From Escherichia coli (GTDB taxonomy: Bacteria; Pseudomonadota; Gammaproteobacteria; Enterobacterales; Enterobacteriaceae): a stretch of DNA of 64,000 bases. Below the pieces are notes generated by a model. The model was not told the origin of the DNA. It did no database searches and saw nothing but the letters and a program-made list of their open reading frames with translations. Every line of letters begins with the position of its first letter. Position 1 is the stretch's first letter. The stretch lies in assembly GCF_036507355.1 (NCBI RefSeq), contig NZ_AP027877.1, one strand, 5' to 3'. The translations under genes were made by a program, and so were the position numbers. Shown in pieces: positions 33,816 to 46,050 of the stretch.

Positions 33816-33957
33816 ATTCATTTCGCAAATGTGCTGACATTTTCCCCTCTAATCCGTACCATACACGCCACAGTTTTTATATCAGATTTCTTATGCTGGG
33901 CGTTCCGGCATGACGCATACTCTTCTGATGCCATATAACGAATTGAGTCGCTTTTAA

Positions 33958-34010
33958 ATGTCGCAAAATCAAGAAATTAGCAAGAAAGAACAATACAACC
34001 TGAACAAGTA
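33958..34010 (+). pseudogene. ttcC: ttcA 5' remnant (ttcC-like) at the int-distal prophage junction
   Basis: atgtcgcaaaatcaagaaattagcaagaaagaacaatacaacctgaacaag ([17 protein letters not shown]) parallels the start of ttcA at 45115 and contains the shared att core. Confidence 0.65.
33982..34007. repeat. Prophage att core, int-distal copy (direct repeat of 45140..45165)
   Basis: About 26 bp, aagaaagaacaatacaacctgaacaa, occurs again within the start of ttcA next to intR. Confidence 0.75.
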
Positions 34011-34248
34011 AGGGCAAAAATCACAACTATCTGACTCATAAGTGTTTTACTTATTTTTCAATGTGTTAAACATCATCAGCGAGAACAATAAACTACGATA
34101 ATCAACTCTTTTTTTGCCCCTTTTTTGCCCCTTTTGCAGCGTTTTGCCCCATTTTTGCCACAAAAAAAAATTCCAAAACGTCTCAATCAAAGTCAAACCA
34201 ACCGCAGCACGTTCTTGCTTAAGACGTGCTGCGGCATAATCCCAATGA

Positions 34249-34833
34249 TTACTCCCTGACAGGGTTCGTAGGCCACTCAATATCAGGTGCAGTTGATGTA
34301 TCAACACGGTTCAGCAACACCCGATACTTTTTCCAGGCTTCCAGCAATGAGGTTTCTTCCTCCGTTGCGATTTCCAGATCCACAGCATCCTGAAGTGGCG
34401 CAATATGCTCACTGGCTACCTGCATCAGGCTGTTTTTTGTTTCTTCCGCCTCTCGGATCCGGAACAGTTTTTCTGCTTCTGCATCTTTCACCCAGGCTGT
34501 GCCGTTCCACTTCTGAAACTCCCCTTCCGGCGATAACCAGGTAACATTTTCCGGTAACGGACCGAGTTCAGAAATAAATAACGCGTCCCCTGACGCTACG
34601 TCATAAACCGTTTTACCCCGATGGTCTTCAACGAGATGCCACGATGCCTCATCACTGTTGAAAACAGCCACGAAGCCTGCCGGAATATCTGGCGGTGCAA
34701 TATCGGTACTGTTTGCTGGCAGACCTGTATGAGGCGGAATATATGCATCACCTTCACCAATAAATTCATTAGTTCCGGCCAGCAGATTATAAATTTTTAT
34801 GGTCCGTGGTTGTTCACTCATTCTGAATGCCAT
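34249..34833 (-). CDS. tfaR: Phage tail fibre assembly protein
   Basis: 194-aa ORF directly downstream of the tail-fibre remnant; Tfa-like sequence; prophage context. Confidence 0.7.
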
Positions 34834-35737
34834 TATGCAAGCCTCACAATGTAGTTAAATGCGATGTTTTTGACGGTGTTTTCCGCGTTACCCGCAGCGT
34901 TAACGGTGATGGTGTGTCCATGTGAGCCAATCGAAACAGAGTGCGTATGAGCACCAATTCCGACAGTATGTGCGTGAGCACCTGCAGATGCAGCTGTGCC
35001 GCTGACACTATGAGTGTGCGCTCCTGCAGCACTTGTATTCACACTGGCCGCAGACACAACCTTATGTACTGACCCATTTTGTGACTACTGGCTGACTGCT
35101 GATGCGCCTGTGACACTATGAGTATGGTTTCCGGCACTTGCGGCTGTACCGCTCACACTGTGTGTATGTGCCCCGGTGTTATTCGTAGATTTAGTGCCGT
35201 AATCAAACGACGATGTGGTTTTCGTACCCAAATCCGTACTGGATGCGCTGGCGCTGTGGGTGTGCGATTTAATACCGTCCTGTTCCTGAGACAATACGGC
35301 CCGACCACTGGCAGGTTTGCCCTTAATCGTCCAGCCACGCATATCAGGGATCACGCCTGACGGATAAGCGGCTGCAAGTTTCGGGTAAGCAGATTTGTCA
35401 AAAGTTTGCCCCTGCATCAGGGCATAGCCAGACGGAACGGTATCTGATGGCCACGGGATTGGTGCACCGACTGGATAAAACTCTGCAGGAGGATGAGCTG
35501 AGGTGTAAAGCTGCGCCCACGGCGACCAGTTTGCGTCGGTCGTATCCCGTCGTGAACGAATAAATGCCGGAGCATGAGCACCGCTTGTACCACTCCAGCC
35601 GATGAGTAACTCACCTTCGCCAACGGCTGTCATCCCTTTCAGGTGAATGATATTTCCATACGCTGTTGGATATCCGTTGTTATACACCTCGTATAACTCA
35701 AGACCTGTTGCCCCCTGCGTATTGTCTGTCAGCGCGG
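34833..35737 (-). pseudogene. stfR: Side tail fibre gene, C-terminal remnant with an internal frame break
   Basis: Two ORFs (35085..35687 and 34833..35057) in different frames with G-A-H-T-H-S-V-S-G-type repeats typical of tail-fibre C-termini; the N-terminal about 800 codons are absent. Confidence 0.65.
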
Positions 35738-36238
35738 TTAGCCGCCATTGTCACCAAGAAAATCCCCGCCCTGCGACATAGCGATGGAAAGAGCAGGTAT
35801 TGATTCGTAGTACGCCAGCATTTCAGAAAGGATCGCATCCAGTTTCCTTATCGGAAAATAGGCCTGGTCATAGTTGCGATCCACCCGAAACTGGAACTCG
35901 TGATAATCATCATCGAGCTGAATGAAGTATTTACACCCGACCAGTTTTGCCTGGTCGAAACAGGCATTACGGGCGTAAAAAATTGAGCGGCGGTCACAGA
36001 AATTATCGGCTTCGTCAAAACGACTGGCGATATCGGCTTTGGAAAACACCAGCACCTGTTCACCAAATTCAGCCATGTACTGATGCCGTGTCTTATCTTC
36101 ATCATCAACAACGATAAAAATTTTCCCGGTATAGCCAGCACGACGCAACGTCCGGTAAGTCAGAACTTTGTCCGGTCGCCCGTGAGTCAGAATAAAGGCG
36201 CAAAAATCATCACGCATATTCCTCCTCCTCACCACCAT
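35738..36238 (-). CDS. Prophage hypothetical protein (ydaY-like); possible nucleotide-sugar transferase-like N-terminal fold
   Basis: 166-aa ORF overlapping the upstream gene by 29 nt; motifs …IFIVVDDED… and …QLDDDY… resemble GT-A/DxD signatures (eyeball inference); abuts the tail-fibre deletion junction. Confidence 0.45.
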
Positions 36239-37001
36239 GCATGATCTCCACCATGCGCTGCGTCATCCGGACAAATCCATTTTCAATAGCCTGCTGATAA
36301 TCAATGATCACCAGCGCCGACTCCTCGAAAAAACACTGAATTTCAGCGGGGGCGTGAGCGTAATAGTCCGCAATTCTGCTGAAATTAAACACCGTGTGAC
36401 GTTCTGCCGCACACAGGAGGAATTTCTCAATATCAGGCTCAAGGGACGCCGAACGTATCCGGCTGATCAGCTCCTGAGTTTTCGTATCGTCGTACAGTTC
36501 ACTGATATCCGGTTTACCGCCCGACGGCTCATAAACAGGCGTATCAATTTTCGTCGTATACGGCTCCTCCTCATTTCCTGTACCGGGCAAAACATCCGTC
36601 AACAGTTCATCAATTTCTGTCGGGATGAAGCCTGTCAGGGAGACATCAAAATCAGCATTGATTAGGTCCGACAGCTCCATCCGCAACAGATCTTCATCCC
36701 AGCCAGCATTCATCGGCAGGCGATTATCTGCCAGGCGGTACGCCTTTTTCTGCTCATCCGTCAGGCCAGACAGAACAATGACCGGAACAGAATCCATTTT
36801 GAGCATTTCAGCCGCCATAACACGACCGTGACCCGCAATAATTTCGCCCTTTTCGTCAATCAGCACCGGATTAGTCCAGCCGAATTGCTTAATACTTTCT
36901 ACCAGTTGTGCCACCTGCTCAGTACTGTGCGTCCTGGCGTTGTGCGCATACGGTGACAATTCTTGTAATGGGCGATAGACTATCTTTAATTTCTCGCTCA
37001 T
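36210..37001 (-). CDS. ParB-like nuclease (ParB N-terminal) domain protein, prophage-encoded (ynaK-like)
   Basis: 263-aa ORF; N-terminus …YRPLQELSPYAHNARTH…LVESIKQFGWTNPVLID…IIAGHGRVMAA…VPVIVL…AYRLADNRL matches the ParB/Srx-fold signature. Confidence 0.6.
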   Translation of the reverse strand: MSEKLKIVYRPLQELSPYAHNARTHSTEQVAQLVESIKQFGWTNPVLIDEKGEIIAGHGRVMAAEMLKMDSVPVIVLSGLTDEQKKAYRLADNRLPMNAGWDEDLLRMELSDLINADFDVSLTGFIPTEIDELLTDVLPGTGNEEEPYTTKIDTPVYEPSGGKPDISELYDDTKTQELISRIRSASLEPDIEKFLLCAAERHTVFNFSRIADYYAHAPAEIQCFFEESALVIIDYQQAIENGFVRMTQRMVEIMHGGEEEEYA

Positions 37002-37138
37002 ACAGCCTTGCTTTATGAATAAAACGCACCCCAGCAGCCAGTGCTACTGGGGACGGAGGTGTTGCTGGTAAAGTTAGGTATTGGATCAATGAGTGAGTCA
37101 ACATAATATTAAACTCACAATTATAAATCAGCCATATA

Positions 37139-38596
37139 TTAGGAGCGCCAAAAAAAACCTGAAAACAATATAATAACAGGATAAATTTCAAGGCGACCAA
37201 GAATCATAGCTATGCACATTAAACATTTTGCAATGTCATTAAGCACTCCGAATGACGATGCAGTAGCCCCAAAACCTAATCCCATATTATTAATACATGC
37301 AGCCACTGTTGCAAATGATGTAAGAAAATCATATCCCATACCATTTAACACCAGTATAAAAAACACCGTGAAGAGAGTATAAAGAAAAAAGAAACTCCAT
37401 ACAGACCTCATTACACGATCTGTAACTATCTTCCCTCCTACATTTACACTCAACAACGCTCTGGGATGAGAAAGCTGATTTATCTCGTGTTTGCTTTGTT
37501 TGAAAAGTATAAGAAATCGAAGTGACTTAATTCCACCACAAGTTGAACCTATACATCCCCCAAAGAAACTTGACAACAGCAAAAACACTATCGTGTGCGT
37601 GGGCCAACTTGCATAATCCTGCGTAGCTAAACCATTATCAGTGAGCATGGAGCTGGCAAGAAAAAACGAATGAATAAAACTTCCATGCAAGTCATACATA
37701 CCTATATGCCAGACCTGGAAAGAGGTAACAATGATCACCCCTAAGGCTATTAACAGAAAGAAACGAAGTTCAATATCTCTGATTAAAGGTTTTATCGTTT
37801 TCCTGCTAATAACAATATACCAAAGAGTGAAGTTGAAAGCCGATAGCAGGGAAAAAGAACCAGCCACCAGCTCAACCAAATAGTTATTAAAATATCCGAT
37901 ACTCTCGCTATGAGTTGAGAAACCACCAAGCGAAACTGTGGAAATCCCGTGACAAATAGCATCAAACAAAGGCATTCCTGCAAGTCTATAACAGACAATA
38001 CAAGCAATACCTAATAAAGAATAAGTTATCCACAGTGTCCGTGACGTATCGGCCAGGCGGGGAGTGAGTTTGTCATCCTTAAATGGCCCCGGCATTTCTG
38101 ACTGATAAAGCTTTGCACCACCAATACCCAATAATGGCAATACAGCAACCGCCAGAACAATAACTCCTAAACCACCTATAAAATTTAACTGTGACCGATA
38201 GTACAAATATGCCCGAGGTAATGAACTAACATCATCAATTACAGTTGCTCCTGTTGTTGTTATTCCAGAAACCCCTTCAAACAGAGCATCAATGAACGTT
38301 AAATTAAGTTCTGAGTCAATCCATAAAGGGAATGCACTAATAACAGAAAACAAAATCCAAAACATTACAATTATAATAAACCCATCACGGGTACGTAATT
38401 GAATGCCAGATTTCTTAGTTGTATACCACGCTCCGCCACCAATGCAAAAAAATATAACGAAAGTTATAAAGAAAACGAACAGGCTTTTTTCTTTATAAAA
38501 CAATGCTACAACCATTGGTGGCAACATTGAAAGACTATAGAGCCAAACCAGGAACCCACACATATGAGTAACAACTCTTACATGAGATGTATTCAT
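37139..38596 (-). CDS. trkG: Trk-system potassium uptake protein (prophage cargo)
   Basis: 485-aa multi-TM TrkH/TrkG-family ORF from the internal ATG (MNTSHVRVVTH…). Confidence 0.8.
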   Translation of the reverse strand: MNTSHVRVVTHMCGFLVWLYSLSMLPPMVVALFYKEKSLFVFFITFVIFFCIGGGAWYTTKKSGIQLRTRDGFIIIVMFWILFSVISAFPLWIDSELNLTFIDALFEGVSGITTTGATVIDDVSSLPRAYLYYRSQLNFIGGLGVIVLAVAVLPLLGIGGAKLYQSEMPGPFKDDKLTPRLADTSRTLWITYSLLGIACIVCYRLAGMPLFDAICHGISTVSLGGFSTHSESIGYFNNYLVELVAGSFSLLSAFNFTLWYIVISRKTIKPLIRDIELRFFLLIALGVIIVTSFQVWHIGMYDLHGSFIHSFFLASSMLTDNGLATQDYASWPTHTIVFLLLSSFFGGCIGSTCGGIKSLRFLILFKQSKHEINQLSHPRALLSVNVGGKIVTDRVMRSVWSFFFLYTLFTVFFILVLNGMGYDFLTSFATVAACINNMGLGFGATASSFGVLNDIAKCLMCIAMILGRLEIYPVIILFSGFFWRS

Positions 38597-38733
38597 ATCT
38601 AAATATTCTTTCAATTATAACCACCTTGCTGCAATATTATGATTATACTGTATAAAATTTAACTCCTCTTAGATCTTACTTCACTGTTCCTTATGAAACA
38701 ATCATCAAAATGAATCATATTGTAGTTAAGATT

Positions 38734-38862
38734 TTACTTTAAACACTGCTCGGTTATGTATTGCTGAGCACCTTCAAGTTGGGCCTGCATCATTACCAGT
38801 CGTTCCCGGAGGGTGAAATAATCCCGTTCAGCGGTGTCTGCCAGTCGGGGGGAGGCTGCATT
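38734..38862 (-). pseudogene. rzpR: 3' ends of phage lysis genes Rz/Rz1 (rzpR/rzoR-like), 5' parts replaced by IS3
   Basis: Minus-strand translation …ADTAERDYFTLRERLVMMQAQLEGAQQYITEQCLK*, with an embedded +1-frame proline-rich Rz1 tail (…QPPPDWQTPLNGIISPSGNDW*). Confidence 0.65.
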
Positions 38863-40120
38863 TGATCCTACCCACGTAATATGGACACAGGCCTAAGCGA
38901 GGTTCTGGTTTTCAAATTGTTCCGGACTGAGGCCGCCACACCAACTGTGCCGCCGCCACCGATTGTAATCACATTCGATATAATTAAACACCGTTGCCCG
39001 CATTATTTCCCGGCTGATAAAGTGTTCTCCATGGATACATTCCACTTTCAGCGAATGAAAGAAGCTTTCCACGCAGGCATTATCGTAGCAGCAACCTTTT
39101 GCGCTCATACTTCCACGCAGATTATGCCGCTTCAGTTGCGCCTGATAATCTGCTGAACAGTACTGGCCTCCACGGTCCGTGTGAACGATAACGTTCCGGG
39201 GCCTCTTACGCCGCCACAGCGCCATCTGCAGGGCATCGCAGGCCAGTTGCGCCGTCATGCGTGGCGACATTGACCAGCCAATAACGGCACGTGACCACAG
39301 GTCAATGACCACTGCCAGATACAGCCAGCCTTCATCTGTACGTAAGTACGTGATGTCTCCTGCCCACTTCTGGTTCGGGCCACTGGCGTAAAAATCCTGC
39401 TCCAACAGATTTTCTGACACAGGCAGGCCGTGTGCGCGGTAGCTGACCGGGCTGAACTTCCGGGAGGCCTTTGCCCTCAGTCCCTGACGGCGCAGGCTTG
39501 CCGCCACGGTTTTTACGTTAAAGGGGTAACCCTGAGCACGCAGTTCATCCGTCAGGCGTGGGGCACCGTAACGCTGTTTTGACCGGGTAAAAGCCGCGAG
39601 GACAACGCTGTCGCAGTGTTGGCGGAACTGCTGACGCGTGCTTATCCTTGTCCGCCGCTGACACCACGTATACCAGCCGCTGCGGGCCACCCGGAGCACG
39701 CGGCACATTGCTTTGATGCTGAACTCAGCCTGATGTTTTTCAATAAAGACATACTTCATTTCAGGCGCTTCGCGAAGTATGTCGCGGCCTTTTGGAGGAT
39801 AGCCAGCTCTTCATCCCGTTCTGCCAGCTGGCGTTTGAGACGTGCAATCTCGGTAGACATCTCCAGTTCACGTTCAGAAGACGTCTGCTGATTTTGCTGT
39901 TTACTGCGCCAGTTGTAGAGCTGTGATTCATACAGGCTGAGTTCACGGGCTGCGGCAGTAACACCGATGCGTTCAGCAAGCTTCAGGGCTTCACTGCGAA
40001 ATTCAGGCGAATGCTGTTTACGGGGTTTTTTACTGGTTGATACTGTTTTTGTCATGTGAGTCACCTCTGACTGAGAGTTTACTCACTTAGCCGCGTGTCC
40101 ACTATTGCTGGGTAAGATCA
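38863..40120 (-). mobile_element. insEF: IS3 (1258 bp); insE/orfA 39756..40055, insF/orfB 38893..39759
   Basis: Terminal IRs TGATCCTACCCACGTAATATGGACAC… and …GTGTCCACTATTGCTGGGTAAGATCA; orfA/orfB transposase pair; flanking triplets differ, so no 3-bp target duplication. Confidence 0.9.
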
Positions 40121-40270
40121 CCGGACGCAACTGAACATCATCAGGACACGCAGCCGCTGGATGCTCAGTCACAGGTAAATTCTGTTGATGCGAAATATCA
40201 GGAACTGCGGGCAGAACTCCATGAAGCCCGGAAAAACATTCCATCAAAAAATCCTGTCGATGCCGATAAA

Positions 40271-41500
40271 TTGCTTGCTGCATCACGTGGTGAATTTGTT
40301 GACGGAATTAGCGACCCGAACGATCCGAAATGGGTAAAGGGGATCCAGACTCGCGATTGTGTGTACCAGAACCAGCCAGAAACGGAAAAAACCAGCCCAG
40401 ATATGAATCAACCTGAGCCAGTAGTGCAACAGGAACCGGAAATAGCCTGCAATGCCTGCGGCCAGACTGGCGGGGATAACTGCCCTGACTGTGGTGCGGT
40501 GATGGGCGACGCAACATACCAGGAAACATTCGATGAAGAGAGTCAGGTTGAAGCTAAGGAAAATGATCCGGAGGAAATGGAAGGCGCTGAACATCCGCAC
40601 AATGAGAATGCTGGCAGCGATCCGCATCGCGATTGCAGTGATGAAACTGGCGAAGTCGCAGATCCCGTAATCGTAGAAGACATAGAGCCAGGTATTTATT
40701 ACGGAATTTCGAATGAGAATTACCACGCGGGTCCCGGTATCAGTAAGTCTCAGCTCGATGACATTGCTGATACTCCGGCACTATATTTGTGGCGTAAAAA
40801 TGCCCCCGTGGACACCACAAAGACAAAAACGCTCGATTTAGGAACTGCTTTCCACTGCCGGGTACTTGAACCGGAAGAATTCAGTAACCGCTTTATCGTA
40901 GCACCTGAATTTAACCGCCGTACAAACGCCGGAAAAGAAGAAGAGAAAGCGTTTCTGATGGAATGCGCAAGCACAGGAAAAACGGTTATCACTGCGGAAG
41001 AAGGCCGGAAAATTGAACTCATGTATCAAAGCGTTATGGCTTTGCCGCTGGGGCAATGGCTTGTTGAAAGCGCCGGACACGCTGAATCATCAATTTACTG
41101 GGAAGATCCTGAAACAGGAATTTTGTGTCGGTGCCGTCCGGACAAAATTATCCCTGAATTTCACTGGATCATGGACGTGAAAACTACGGCGGATATTCAA
41201 CGATTCAAAACCGCTTATTACGACTACCGCTATCACGTTCAGGATGCATTCTACAGTGACGGTTATGAAGCACAGTTTGGAGTGCAGCCAACTTTCGTTT
41301 TTCTGGTTGCCAGCACAACTATTGAATGCGGACGTTATCCGGTTGAAATTTTCATGATGGGCGAAGAAGCAAAACTGGCAGGTCAACAGGAATATCACCG
41401 CAATCTGCGAACCCTGTCTGACTGCCTGAATACCGATGAATGGCCAGCTATTAAGACATTATCACTGCCCCGCTGGGCTAAGGAATATGCAAATGACTAA
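40271..41500 (+). CDS. recE: Exonuclease VIII (RecE) C-terminal portion, N-terminal part of gene missing
   Basis: 409-aa ORF ending …[12 protein letters not shown] just upstream of recT and beginning shortly after the IS3 end; contains the nuclease-domain region. Confidence 0.7.
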
Positions 41501-42302
41501 GCAACCACCAATCGCAAAAGCCGATCTGCAAAAAACTCAGGGAAACCGTGCACCAGCAGCAGTTAAAAATAGCGACGTGATTAGTTTTATTAACCAGCCA
41601 TCAATGAAAGAGCAACTGGCAGCAGCTCTTCCACGCCATATGACGGCTGAACGTATGATCCGTATCGCCACCACAGAAATTCGTAAAGTTCCGGCGTTAG
41701 GAAACTGTGACACTATGAGTTTTGTCAGTGCGATCGTACAGTGTTCACAGCTCGGACTTGAGCCAGGTAGCGCCCTCGGTCATGCATATTTACTGCCTTT
41801 TGGTAATAAAAACGAAAAGAGCGGTAAAAAGAACGTTCAGCTAATCATTGGCTATCGCGGCATGATTGATCTGGCTCGCCGTTCTGGTCAAATCGCCAGC
41901 CTGTCAGCCCGTGTTGTCCGTGAAGGTGACGAGTTTAGCTTCGAATTTGGCCTTGATGAAAAGTTAATACACCGCCCGGGAGAAAACGAAGATGCCCCGG
42001 TTACCCACGTCTATGCTGTCGCAAGACTGAAAGACGGAGGTACTCAGTTTGAAGTTATGACGCGCAAACAGATTGAGCTGGTGCGCAGCCTGAGTAAAGC
42101 TGGTAATAACGGGCCGTGGGTAACTCACTGGGAAGAAATGGCAAAGAAAACGGCTATTCGTCGCCTGTTCAAATATCTGCCCGTATCAATTGAGATCCAG
42201 CGTGCAGTATCAATGGATGAAAAGGAACCACTGACAATCGATCCTGCAGATTCCTCTGTATTAACCGGGGAATACAGTGTAATCGATAATTCAGAGGAAT
42301 AA
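41493..42302 (+). CDS. recT: Single-strand annealing recombinase RecT
   Basis: 269-aa ORF from the internal ATG ([29 protein letters not shown]…), overlapping the recE stop. Confidence 0.85.
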
Positions 42303-42346
42303 TTCAGCCTGGCGGTGTAATGCACCGCCAACTTGAAATATTTTTT

Positions 42347-43330
42347 ATGAGAAAAATTATGAGATATGACAATGTTGGTGATGCTGCCAACTTACTGATT
42401 TAGTGTATGATGGTGTTTTTGAGGTGCTCCAGTGGCTTCTGTTTCTATCAGCTGTCCCTCCTGTTCAGCTACTGACGGGGTGGTGCGTAACGGCAAAAGC
42501 ACCGCCGGACATCAGCGCTATCTCTGCTCTCACTGCCGTAAAACATGGCAACTGCAGTTCACTTACACCGCTTCTCAACCCGGTACGCACCAGAAAATCA
42601 TTGATATGGCCATGAATGGCGTTGGATGCCGGGCAACAGCCCGCATTATGGGCATTGGCCTCAACACGATTTTACGTCACTTAAAAAACTCAGGCCGCAG
42701 TCGGTAACCTCGCGCATACAGCCGGGCAGTGACGTCATCGTCTGCGCGGAAATGGACGAACAGTGGGGCTATGTCGGGGCTAAATCGCGCCAGCGCTGGC
42801 TGTTTTACGCGTATGACAGGCTCCGGAAGACGGTTGTTGCGCACGTATTCGGTGAACGCACGATGGCGACGCTGGGGCGTCTTATGAGCCTGCTGTCACC
42901 CTTTGACGTGGTGATATGGATGACGGATGGCTGGCCGCTGTATGAATCCCGCCTGAAGGGAAAGCTGCACGTAATCAGCAAGCGATATACGCAGCGAATT
43001 GAGCGGCATAACCTGAATCTGAGGCAGCACCTGGCACGGCTGGGACGGAAGTCGCTGTCGTTCTCAAAATCGGTGGAGCTGCATGACAAAGTCATCGGGC
43101 ATTATCTGAACATAAAACACTATCAATAAGTTGGAGTCATTACCGACAATGTTAAACCATGTCCATTTTGTGGTTGTCCATCAGTAACGGTGAAAGCCAT
43201 TTCAGGATATTACCGAGCGAAGTGTAACGGATGCGAATCCCGAACCGGTTATGGTGGAAGTGAAAAAGAAGCACTCGAAAGATGGAATAAACGAACCACT
43301 GGAAATAATAATGGAGGTGTTCATGTATAA
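42347..43330 (+). pseudogene. ralR: lar/ralR (restriction alleviation; type I TA toxin) interrupted by IS1
   Basis: 5' codons (MRKIMRYDNV) at 42347..42376 and the remainder (…KPCPFCGCPSVTVKAISGYYRAKCNGCESRTGYGGSEKEALERWNKRTTGNNNGGVHV*) at 43145..43330, separated by IS1 with a duplicated GACAATGTT. Confidence 0.7.
42377..43144 (+). mobile_element. insAB: IS1 (768 bp), copy 3, simple insertion; insA 42432..42707, insB' 42626..43129
   Basis: Terminal IRs present; perfect 9-bp target-site duplication GACAATGTT at 42368..42376 and 43145..43153. Confidence 0.9.
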
Positions 43331-43532
43331 AATTACCGCCACTATTGAAAAGGAAGGTGGCACTCCTACTAACTGGACAAGATATTCAAAATCTAAACTA
43401 ACGAAATCAGAATGCGAAAAAATGCTCTCAGGTAAAAAAGAAGCAGGCGTTTCCAGAGAGCAGAAAGTAAAACTGATAAATTTTAATTGCGAGAAACTTC
43501 AGTCCTCGAGAATTGCATTGTATTCAAATTAA
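43323..43532 (+). CDS. ydaC: Small prophage protein
   Basis: 69-aa ORF MYKITATIEKEGGTPTNWTRYSKSK… whose start overlaps the lar stop; symbol from position between lar and xisR. Confidence 0.6.
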   Translation: MYKITATIEKEGGTPTNWTRYSKSKLTKSECEKMLSGKKEAGVSREQKVKLINFNCEKLQSSRIALYSN

Positions 43533-43610
43533 AACTTCATAGCTGATTATTAATAATCAACATCGGGCGTCAATTTCAGTCTAACATTGGCGCCTGCCAG
43601 AGGTGATGCG

Positions 43611-43826
43611 ATGGCACAAGTAATCTTTAATGAAGAGTGGATGGTTGAATACGGCCTGATGCTTCGCACTGGTCTGGGGGCCAGACAAATTGAAGCATAC
43701 CGCCAGAACTGTTGGGTGGAGGGCTTCCACTTCAAACGAGTATCTCCTTTAGGTAAGCCAGACAGCAAACGAGGGATTATCTGGTACAACTATCCAAAGA
43801 TAAATCAGTTTATCAAAGACTCATGA
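43611..43826 (+). CDS. xisR: Prophage excisionase
   Basis: 71-aa ORF from the internal ATG ([17 protein letters not shown]…) immediately upstream of the integrase. Confidence 0.7.
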
Positions 43827-43827
43827 T

Positions 43828-45063
43828 ATGTCTAAATTACCAACAGGTGTCGAGATTAGAGGTAGATACATTCGCATCTGGTTCATGTTTCGAGGAAAAC
43901 GATGTCGGGAAACATTAAAAGGCTGGGAGATTACAAACAGTAATATTAAAAAGGCCGGAAATTTAAGAGCGCTGATAGTTCATGAAATAAACTCCGGTGA
44001 ATTTGAGTATTTAAGACGTTTTCCCCAGTCCAGCACTGGGGCAAAAATGGTGACAACGAGAGTCATAAAAACGTTCGGAGAGCTTTGTGATATCTGGACA
44101 AAAATTAAAGAGACAGAGTTAACAACAAACACAATGAAGAAAACGAAATCACAATTAAAAACACTCAGAATAATAATTTGTGAAAGTACCCCGATATCAC
44201 ATATTCGTTATAGCGATATCTTAAACTACCGGAATGAACTGCTGCATGGAGAAACGCTTTACCTGGATAATCCAAGATCCAACAAAAAAGGAAGAACCGT
44301 GCGCACAGTTGATAACTATATCGCCCTGCTCTGTTCGCTGTTGCGTTTTGCGTATCAGTCGGGATTTATATCAACCAAACCATTTGAAGGAGTAAAAAAA
44401 TTACAGCGAAACAGAATAAAGCCTGATCCGTTATCTAAAACAGAATTCAATGCATTAATGGAAAGTGAAAAAGGACAGAGCCAGAACTTGTGGAAATTTG
44501 CCGTTTACTCAGGACTTCGTCACGGGGAACTGGCAGCTCTGGCGTGGGAGGATGTGGATCTCGAAAAGGGAATAGTGAATGTCAGAAGAAACCTGACGAT
44601 ACTTGATATGTTCGGTCCCCCAAAAACAAATGCCGGGATCCGAACAGTAACACTACTGCAGCCTGCTCTTGAAGCACTGAAGGAGCAATACAAACTGACC
44701 GGGCATCATCGCAAAAGCGAAATCACCTTTTATCATCGGGAGTACGGCAGAACCGAAAAGCAAAAACTGCATTTTGTTTTCATGCCCAGGGTGTGTAACG
44801 GAAAACAAAAACCTTATTACTCGGTAAGCAGTTTGGGGGCAAGGTGGAATGCAGCAGTAAAACGTGCTGGTATTCGCCGCCGTAATCCGTACCATACGCG
44901 GCATACTTTTGCCTGCTGGCTGTTGACGGCAGGAGCGAACCCGGCATTTATAGCCAGCCAAATGGGGCATGAAACTGCGCAGATGGTGTATGAAATTTAC
45001 GGTATGTGGATTGATGACATGAACGACGAACAGATAGCCATGTTGAATGCGCGGTTATCGTAG
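43828..45063 (+). CDS. intR: Prophage tyrosine integrase
   Basis: 411-aa ORF with the C-terminal catalytic tyrosine-recombinase region (…HTRHTFACWLLTAGANP…QMGHET…MVYEIY…). Confidence 0.85.
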   Translation: MSKLPTGVEIRGRYIRIWFMFRGKRCRETLKGWEITNSNIKKAGNLRALIVHEINSGEFEYLRRFPQSSTGAKMVTTRVIKTFGELCDIWTKIKETELTTNTMKKTKSQLKTLRIIICESTPISHIRYSDILNYRNELLHGETLYLDNPRSNKKGRTVRTVDNYIALLCSLLRFAYQSGFISTKPFEGVKKLQRNRIKPDPLSKTEFNALMESEKGQSQNLWKFAVYSGLRHGELAALAWEDVDLEKGIVNVRRNLTILDMFGPPKTNAGIRTVTLLQPALEALKEQYKLTGHHRKSEITFYHREYGRTEKQKLHFVFMPRVCNGKQKPYYSVSSLGARWNAAVKRAGIRRRNPYHTRHTFACWLLTAGANPAFIASQMGHETAQMVYEIYGMWIDDMNDEQIAMLNARLS

Positions 45064-45114
45064 TTGCAAAGTTTGCCCCCAATTTGCCCCATTTAGTACC
45101 AGGGAACTGAAATA

Positions 45115-46050
45115 ATGCAAGAAAATCAACAAATTACAAAGAAAGAACAATACAACCTGAACAAATTACAAAAACGCCTGCGTCGTAACGTGGGCGAAGC
45201 CATTGCTGACTTCAATATGATTGAAGAAGGCGATCGCATCATGGTTTGCCTCTCCGGGGGTAAAGACAGCTATACCATGCTGGAGATTCTGCGCAATTTG
45301 CAGCAAAGCGCGCCAATCAATTTTTCGCTGGTGGCTGTTAACCTCGATCAAAAGCAACCGGGCTTCCCGGAACACGTTCTGCCCGAGTATCTTGAAAAGC
45401 TGGGCGTTGAGTACAAGATTGTTGAAGAGAACACTTACGGTATCGTGAAAGAGAAGATTCCAGAGGGCAAAACCACTTGCTCACTGTGTTCTCGGCTACG
45501 TCGCGGTATCCTTTATCGCACCGCAACGGAACTGGGGGCGACGAAGATCGCGCTGGGTCACCATCGTGACGATATCCTGCAAACGCTGTTCTTAAATATG
45601 TTCTACGGCGGCAAGATGAAAGGTATGCCTCCGAAATTGATGAGCGATGATGGCAAACATATCGTGATTCGTCCGCTGGCCTACTGCCGCGAGAAAGATA
45701 TTCAGCGCTTTGCCGATGCAAAAGCGTTCCCGATTATTCCGTGCAACCTGTGCGGTTCACAGCCTAACCTGCAACGTCAGGTGATTGCTGACATGTTGCG
45801 TGACTGGGATAAACGTTATCCGGGGCGTATCGAGACGATGTTCAGCGCGATGCAGAATGTGGTGCCATCGCATCTGTGCGATACCAACCTGTTCGATTTT
45901 AAAGGCATTACCCACGGTTCTGAAGTGGTTAACGGGGGTGATCTGGCGTTTGATCGCGAAGAGATCCCACTACAACCGGCGGGCTGGCAGCCAGAAGAAG
46001 ATGAAAATCAGTTGGATGAGTTACGGCTGAATGTGGTTGAAGTGAAATAA
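45115..46050 (+). CDS. ttcA: tRNA 2-thiocytidine(32) synthetase
   Basis: 311-aa ORF with PP-loop (…[11 protein letters not shown]…) and Cys clusters. Confidence 0.85.
45140..45165. repeat. Prophage att core, int-proximal copy inside the 5' end of ttcA
   Basis: aaagaaagaacaatacaacctgaacaa matches 33982..34007. Confidence 0.75.

Follow-up and report, generated by a model that had tools for sequence, protein, structure and literature searches.

In phage lambda, the int gene terminates beside the P′ arm, some 80 bp away from the core, and the arm-type sites follow the consensus C/AAGTCACTAT. The sites for bending proteins sit there between the arm-type and the core-type sites (PMC4880445). In KplE1 (CPS-53), the occupancy of the arm-type sites in attL by the integrase IntS can repress transcription (PMC2951348); the gene regulated is intS itself, whose mapped promoter (-10 and -35) overlaps the P′ sites. 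Closest by domain is the IntBPP-1 subgroup of integrases (DUF3596/PF12167), which includes those of the Stx2a phages and of Gifsy-2 and with which IntR, the integrase of the Rac prophage, shares PF12167; in the literature searched, no arm-type sites were found to be defined for any member of this subgroup. Few cryptic prophages of E. coli K-12 have been studied as much as Rac, whose excision depends on XisR/IntR (PMC4632033). Database records annotate only the 26-bp core at the Rac att site, and we found no paper defining the arm-type sites of IntR; the literature searched likewise gave nothing relevant on the motif TTTGCCCC in connection with an integrase or on arm-type sites in connection with Rac, and no reports of IntR-DNA binding or att-site mutagenesis.

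The window analyzed here, a stretch of 64,000 nucleotides of an E. coli genome (contig NZ_AP027877.1), carries a Rac-type prophage inserted in ttcA (Table 1). Between 43800 and 45400 it is 99.9% identical to K-12 MG1655, whose annotation in that stretch is xisR, intR, and ttcA, and from the intR stop to the core the two sequences agree save for one base, 45103, which lies outside the repeats described below. The two copies of the 26-bp core, a sequence annotated as a misc_recomb feature in KU052037.1, are named as in Liu et al. (2015; PMC4632033), the int-proximal copy being attL. The distal core is preceded on its left by the 5′ end that the bacterial ttcA had originally, with its ATG at 33960 (the ttcC′ remnant), and to the left of the int-proximal core lies phage DNA that provides a substitute start codon and eight ttcA codons, in agreement with the same authors (PMC4632033). 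From core to core this copy of Rac measures 11.2 kb, against the 23,060 bp of K-12 (PMC11014345); it contains IS elements and a truncated recE region, yet xisR and intR are undamaged, and so are both junctions. The intR-ttcA junction was found in 1833 of 5426 complete E. coli genomes (about a third), and in the E. coli collection there is no end-to-end match for the Rac copy itself (33982-45164), the best one, AR_0061, reaching 85% coverage. A search of Rfam placed on the - strand the RalA antitoxin sRNA (43329-43507) and the IS009 RNA (34292-34490), and matched no RNA family at either prophage junction.

Table 1. Features at the two Rac junctions, in window coordinates.
Feature	Sequence	Position	Strand	Remarks
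Distal att core (attR), 26 bp	AAGAAAGAACAATACAACCTGAACAA	33982..34007	+	
Distal arm-type sites 1 and 2 (putative)	TTTGCCCC twice	34113..34131	+	11 bp apart; starts 34113 and 34124
Distal arm-type sites 3 and 4 (putative)	TTTGCCCC and TTTGCCAC	34143..34161	+	11 bp apart; starts 34143 and 34154
xisR (ydaQ), excisionase		43611..43826	+	Pfam PF06806 (E 8.9e-21); annotated xisR in E. coli genomes; PMC4632033
intR		43828..45063	+	tyrosine integrase with N-terminal arm-binding domain
Int-proximal arm-type site 1 (putative)	TTTGCCCC	45072..45079	+	9 bp past intR stop
Int-proximal arm-type site 2 (putative)	TTTGCCCC	45083..45090	+	conserved part TGCCCC; 25 bp before ttcA ATG
ttcA		45115..46050	+	first 8 codons, start codon, and SD-like element of prophage origin
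IHF site	consensus WATCAANNNNTTR, actual AATCAACAAATTA	45124..45136	+	between arm pair and core
Int-proximal att core (attL), 26 bp	AAGAAAGAACAATACAACCTGAACAA	45139..45164	+	inside ttcA codons 9-17

The gap of 51 bp between the intR stop (45063) and the ttcA ATG (45115) contains, as the sequence-only reading had claimed, a pair of TTTGCCCC repeats, whose starts are 11 bp apart and whose sequence is identical in K-12; read directly, the sequence has no third site at a 10- or 11-bp register on either side. That reading had also taken the pair for the counterpart of a distal cluster and had placed it in the int-proximal arm. Both ideas are borne out; the same 8-mer recurs at 34113, 34124, and 34143. 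The distal cluster consists of two 11-bp-spaced pairs on one strand, about 105-150 bp inward of the distal core. Five of the seven exact copies of TTTGCCCC found on both strands of the whole window fall within the two arm stretches, and 34115, 34145, and 45074 are the only positions in the window that show the pattern TGCCCC-N5-TGCC[C/A]C. Taken alone, an 8-bp sequence repeated close by is no rarity, being present in 3254 of 200,000 random 51-bp stretches; the same 8-mer repeated in both regions of a random pair (51 bp and 200 bp, drawn from the window) was obtained in none of 200,000 trials.

The conservation of the motif at related prophage junctions had been set beforehand as the test on which the claim could fall, and it proved to be strong. 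In a scan of one genome per species, which returned 80 relatives, the pair is kept in all 22 loci in which int adjoins ttcA. Their integrases are 64-100% identical to IntR, and they come from 14 genera (Escherichia, Pluralibacter, Citrobacter, Enterobacter, Erwinia, Pseudescherichia, Raoultella, Serratia, Brenneria, Klebsiella, Mangrovibacter, Silvania, Hafnia, and Cedecea). The pattern in these loci is TG[C/T]C[C/T]C-N5-TG[C/T]C[C/T]C, starting 7-10 bp past the int stop. When 23 junctions are aligned, the columns conserved in at least 85% of them are those of TTTGCCCC, of TGCCCC 11 bp further on, of a short T-run, of an SD-like GAG, and of the ATG region; all eight columns of the first site reach this level, as does the TGCCCC of the second in the same register, and the bases between and around the two sites are freely variable. 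As the third-codon identity among the int genes of the relatives is only about 0.38, a neutral spacer would not have been kept.

These data bear on the idea that the repeats, lying in a decayed prophage, are a relic without function or a low-complexity repetition due to chance. The copy in the window is certainly degraded, with its reduced length, its IS elements, and its truncated recE, and short 8-bp repeats alone are, as stated above, not rare. Nevertheless, the ORFs of xisR and intR are undamaged, as are both cores and all six sites, and the Rac of K-12, which has the identical pair, excises precisely (PMC4632033, PMC11014345); chance, for its part, is excluded by the conservation of the pair over 14 genera against a variable background. 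We therefore hold this explanation to be extremely improbable.

The pair belongs to the integrase and not to ttcA, because it is kept beside int in relatives that are not inserted in ttcA. In three such loci it still stands directly after the int stop, the genes that follow being an SDR-type gene (L148), an adenosine-deaminase-like gene (L115), and a membrane-protein gene (L139). The sites thus go with the int lineage regardless of the target, with the exception of one locus without ttcA downstream (L145), where a full-length Int 70% identical to IntR is followed by only a degenerate remnant of the pair; this is probably a decayed junction. In the more distant relatives, whose integrases are 48-56% identical to IntR, the pair is mostly missing at the int stop even though their N-terminal domains are 56-67% identical to that of IntR, so that the link between this domain and the motif is not clean, the identity of the domain and the presence of the pair showing a rough trend with no clean cut-off. 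Four loci of this range (L097, L098, L107, and L100; Int 53-56% identical; Atlantibacter and Citrobacter gillenii) lack the TGCCCC pair, and have in common a palindromic CTATAGGGGGGTATAG/CTATAGGGGGGTATGG element about 40-65 bp past the int stop, which may be the equivalent site of that lineage.

A different kind of conservation was observed within the 3′ part of the gene. In intR codons 336-400 (44833-45027) the third-codon positions are better conserved than elsewhere in int, for every one of the 78 pairs formed by 13 relatives (mean identity 0.58, against 0.38); AATCCGTACCATAC, for instance, is invariant there. In the E. coli genomes H8-H11, which have a different integrase, the DNA homology to the window starts at 44832. 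The stretch 44833-45027 could contain an element acting at the DNA level, such as a longer P′ arm or a promoter from which ttcA is fed, or else be a recombination hot zone.

The arrangement of both arms around a single core can be seen in phage DNA. A scan of IMG/VR with IntR gave 80 near-identical Rac prophage ends, most of which end at the int stop, and only one of them, the junction of a Rac circle (L035), was informative. Together with phage PHB10 (Int 69% identical) and a viral contig (L191), it makes three intact attP, all with the same order: two sites follow the int stop, then come the ttcA-like start and the core, and beyond an A+T-rich stretch of about 105-115 bp there are three or four further sites. 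Hence both arms carry a short repeated motif that bears no relation to the core sequence, in the three attP as well as at the junctions of the window. In L191 the first proximal site is TGTCCC and the distal arm has two TGTCCC and two TGCCCC, whereas TGTCCC is found in neither arm of Rac and PHB10; the arms covary in the site variant, in one instance and in a single lineage (L191 and its close relatives). Two other relatives, L095 and L091, are of the TGTCCC type, and L183 is of the TGCCTC type.

Other elements surround the arms. Just past the distal sites, at 34202-34234, there is a perfect 11-bp inverted repeat (CCGCAGCACGT / ACGTGCTGCGG), next to which K-12 and the Rac circle have a T-run, as in an intrinsic terminator. 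In attP this terminator would lie downstream of int across the att site, like tI/sib in lambda; in the prophage it is apart from int, whose transcripts run into ttcA. At 34012-34020, a few bases past the end of the distal core (four bases, counted from 34007), the arm motif recurs in inverted and nearly identical form (GGGCAAAAA, complementary to TTTTTGCCC); this may be due to chance, since it is not conserved in PHB10 or L191. The int-proximal core is flanked by the direct repeat ACAAATTACAAA, at 45129-45140 and at 45161-45172, with one copy of phage and the other of bacterial origin, which forms part of a 32-nt imperfect tandem, 72% identical.

Between the proximal pair and the core, the DNA carries a site for a bending protein. 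Of 25 relatives, 15 have the strict IHF consensus at the same offset, and a GeF-seq peak of IHF has been located on a consensus near the ttcA start codon, adjoining the attL of Rac (Kasho et al., PMC8407004). IntR, for its part, possesses, besides the core-binding and catalytic domains, a distinct domain for arm binding at its N-terminus. This N-domain corresponds to PF12167, with a predicted fold of three strands and a helix; a search of the IntR sequence against solved structures matched the catalytic domains only and nothing in the N-domain.

From all this we infer that the repeats are bound by the N-domain of IntR and are required for recombination, and that the proximal pair very probably represents the int-proximal, lambda P′-like arm-type sites of IntR as a heterobivalent tyrosine integrase. 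The workings of such a system would be as follows: (i) the small N-terminal domain of IntR would bind the TTTGCCCC/TGCCCC repeats, and the core-binding and catalytic domains would act at the 26-bp core, 50-70 bp from the pair; (ii) IHF at 45124-45136 would bend the DNA, in such a way that one IntR molecule could bridge arm and core; (iii) the four distal sites (34113-34161) would serve likewise in the other arm; and (iv) in the circular form of the phage, the two arms would flank the single core, in an attP of roughly 270 bp. IntR would thereby hold the arm sites while cutting the prophage into or out of ttcA.

Another protein of the same module could be thought of as the reader of the repeats, namely XisR, the recombination directionality factor. 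Excisionases often bind tandem direct repeats in one att arm, homologues of xisR are found alongside int in most of the motif-bearing relatives, and XisR shifts a 294-bp attR fragment that holds the four distal repeats (PMC4632033). However, when the published primers are mapped, the AttR fragment corresponds to 33884-34177 of the window (positions 218-511 of the K-12 locus L290, 294 bp) and the AttM fragment, used as a negative control, to L290 342-632 (291 bp, as published), with the four distal sites at L290 447-495; and AttM, which thus holds all of these sites, is not shifted by XisR in the published EMSA (PMC4632033). Our re-reading of this assay therefore does not find excisionase binding to the repeat-bearing DNA as such, and XisR is unlikely to be the reader of TTTGCCCC. 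In addition, the motif is in both arms, whereas the Xis sites of lambda are in the P arm only (PMC4880445), a distribution that fits Int better than Xis. Taking the two sides together, we regard XisR as a very improbable alternative to IntR. The presence or absence of xis among relatives was considered as a means of telling Int from Xis and was discarded, as the genes travel together and the loci without xis are int-truncated remnants.

The same assay contains an observation of its own on XisR. Along 33884-34298 (L290 218-632), XisR binds the fragment made up of bacterial flank, core, and arm, and leaves unbound the one that begins immediately past the core and includes the whole distal arm. 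Because AttR is bound and AttM is not, the determinant of XisR binding maps to 33884-34007 or to the core/arm boundary, an unusual location for an excisionase.

A further claim had been that the pair overlaps the likely promoter or ribosome-binding region of ttcA, and this one did not survive. A simple scan of 44500-45300 gave no sigma-70-like promoter and no terminator, and accordingly no -35/-10 hexamers at or next to the repeats; no mapped start sites were found in the literature, which, as far as it was searched, had nothing relevant on the promoter or expression of ttcA in E. coli. Reading by eye provided TTGAAT-17-CAAAGT (7/12) and others, all weak; a promoter reading was dropped, because these -35/-10 candidates were poor and not conserved among relatives. 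The nearest candidates on the + strand, also weak, are at 44148-44177 and, upstream of xisR, at 43529-43557. The conserved SD-like element, GAG/AGGGAA at 45101-45107, is 8-14 nt before the ttcA ATG and begins 11 bp downstream of the second repeat, clear of the pair. Its base 45103 is G in the window (AGGGAA) and A in K-12 and all other Rac copies examined (AGAGAA), a change that, being within a conserved SD-like element, could alter the translation of ttcA.

Integration also separates ttcA from its own upstream region. The native promoter-like site at 33834-33862 (CTGACA-17-TACCAT) and the original start (33960-34012) stay at the distal junction, where all that they now drive is a remnant of 17 codons running on into the distal arm. 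For this reason, ttcA in lysogens is probably transcribed from the phage side, and, as there is no terminator between the xisR-intR region and ttcA, such transcripts would cross the pair.

This leads to the proposal that the repeats serve, alone or besides another role, as an operator in the region of ttcA expression, where bound IntR would block or modulate transcription into ttcA and so couple the prophage recombination module to host tRNA thiolation. In its support can be cited the promoter-like site left behind by integration, the course of the transcripts across the pair, the precedent of KplE1, where IntS represses a promoter that overlaps the attL arm-type sites (PMC2951348), and the unusual conservation at synonymous positions over the final ~65 codons of int, where a promoter could be concealed. 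Against it stand the lack of a sigma-70-like promoter in 44500-45300, the SD-like element left free, and the low level at which RacR holds the transcripts of xisR and intR in lysogens (PMC11014345), so that little IntR would be available. The pair stands beside int in relatives that are not at ttcA, and the motif recurs in the distal arm, far from ttcA; thus the regulation of ttcA cannot be the reason why the pair exists, and the element is linked to int rather than to ttcA. As an account of the repeats, the operator is very unlikely. It is also improbable that the arm-type sites would, in addition, control the host gene, with IntR, together with IHF, throttling ttcA from 45072-45136; the transcription so controlled would come from the xisR-intR side or from an unrecognized promoter in the conserved 3′ end of int. 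If true, the synthesis of 2-thiocytidine in tRNA would be tied to the state of the prophage recombination module. Regulation of ttcA by bound IntR would be a side effect at best, conceivable although of low probability.

In summary, the repeats are most likely an ordinary, expected, and apparently undescribed set of integrase arm-type sites, which leaves our understanding of how such integrase systems work unchanged. The six sites, the IHF site, and the geometry of the arms provide a concrete map of the attP, attL, and attR of Rac, which could guide studies of excision and the use of IntR as a recombination tool, and they point to TGCCCC, spaced at 11 bp, as a candidate motif of the arm sites in the IntR clade of the PF12167 integrases across Enterobacterales.

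Set beside the known systems, the locus resembles KplE1 in that the arm-type sites of attL lie in a transcribed or regulatory region by the junction. It differs in that the neighbor is a host gene, ttcA, in that int is transcribed toward the junction, and in that no promoter is detectable. Within the IntBPP-1 subgroup, IntR is 43-44% identical to the integrases of 933W and VT2-Sakai, and the relatives at 42-47% identity do not have a TGCCCC pair past their stop codon. With the attP and attL of lambda it has the following in common: a heterobivalent integrase with an N-terminal arm-binding domain (PMC4880445), short tandem repeats unrelated to the core in the arm beside the 3′ end of int, more sites in the other arm, an IHF site (H′ in lambda) between arm sites and core, and an att site of roughly 250 bp (PMC4880445). 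Rac departs from lambda in its motif, TTTGCCCC; in the number of sites, two proximal and four distal as against three (P′1-P′3) and two; in its arm-binding domain, PF12167, which is not of the lambda-type family; and in the position of its core within the 5′ end of a protein-coding gene, where the phage replaces the start codon of the gene that it enters.
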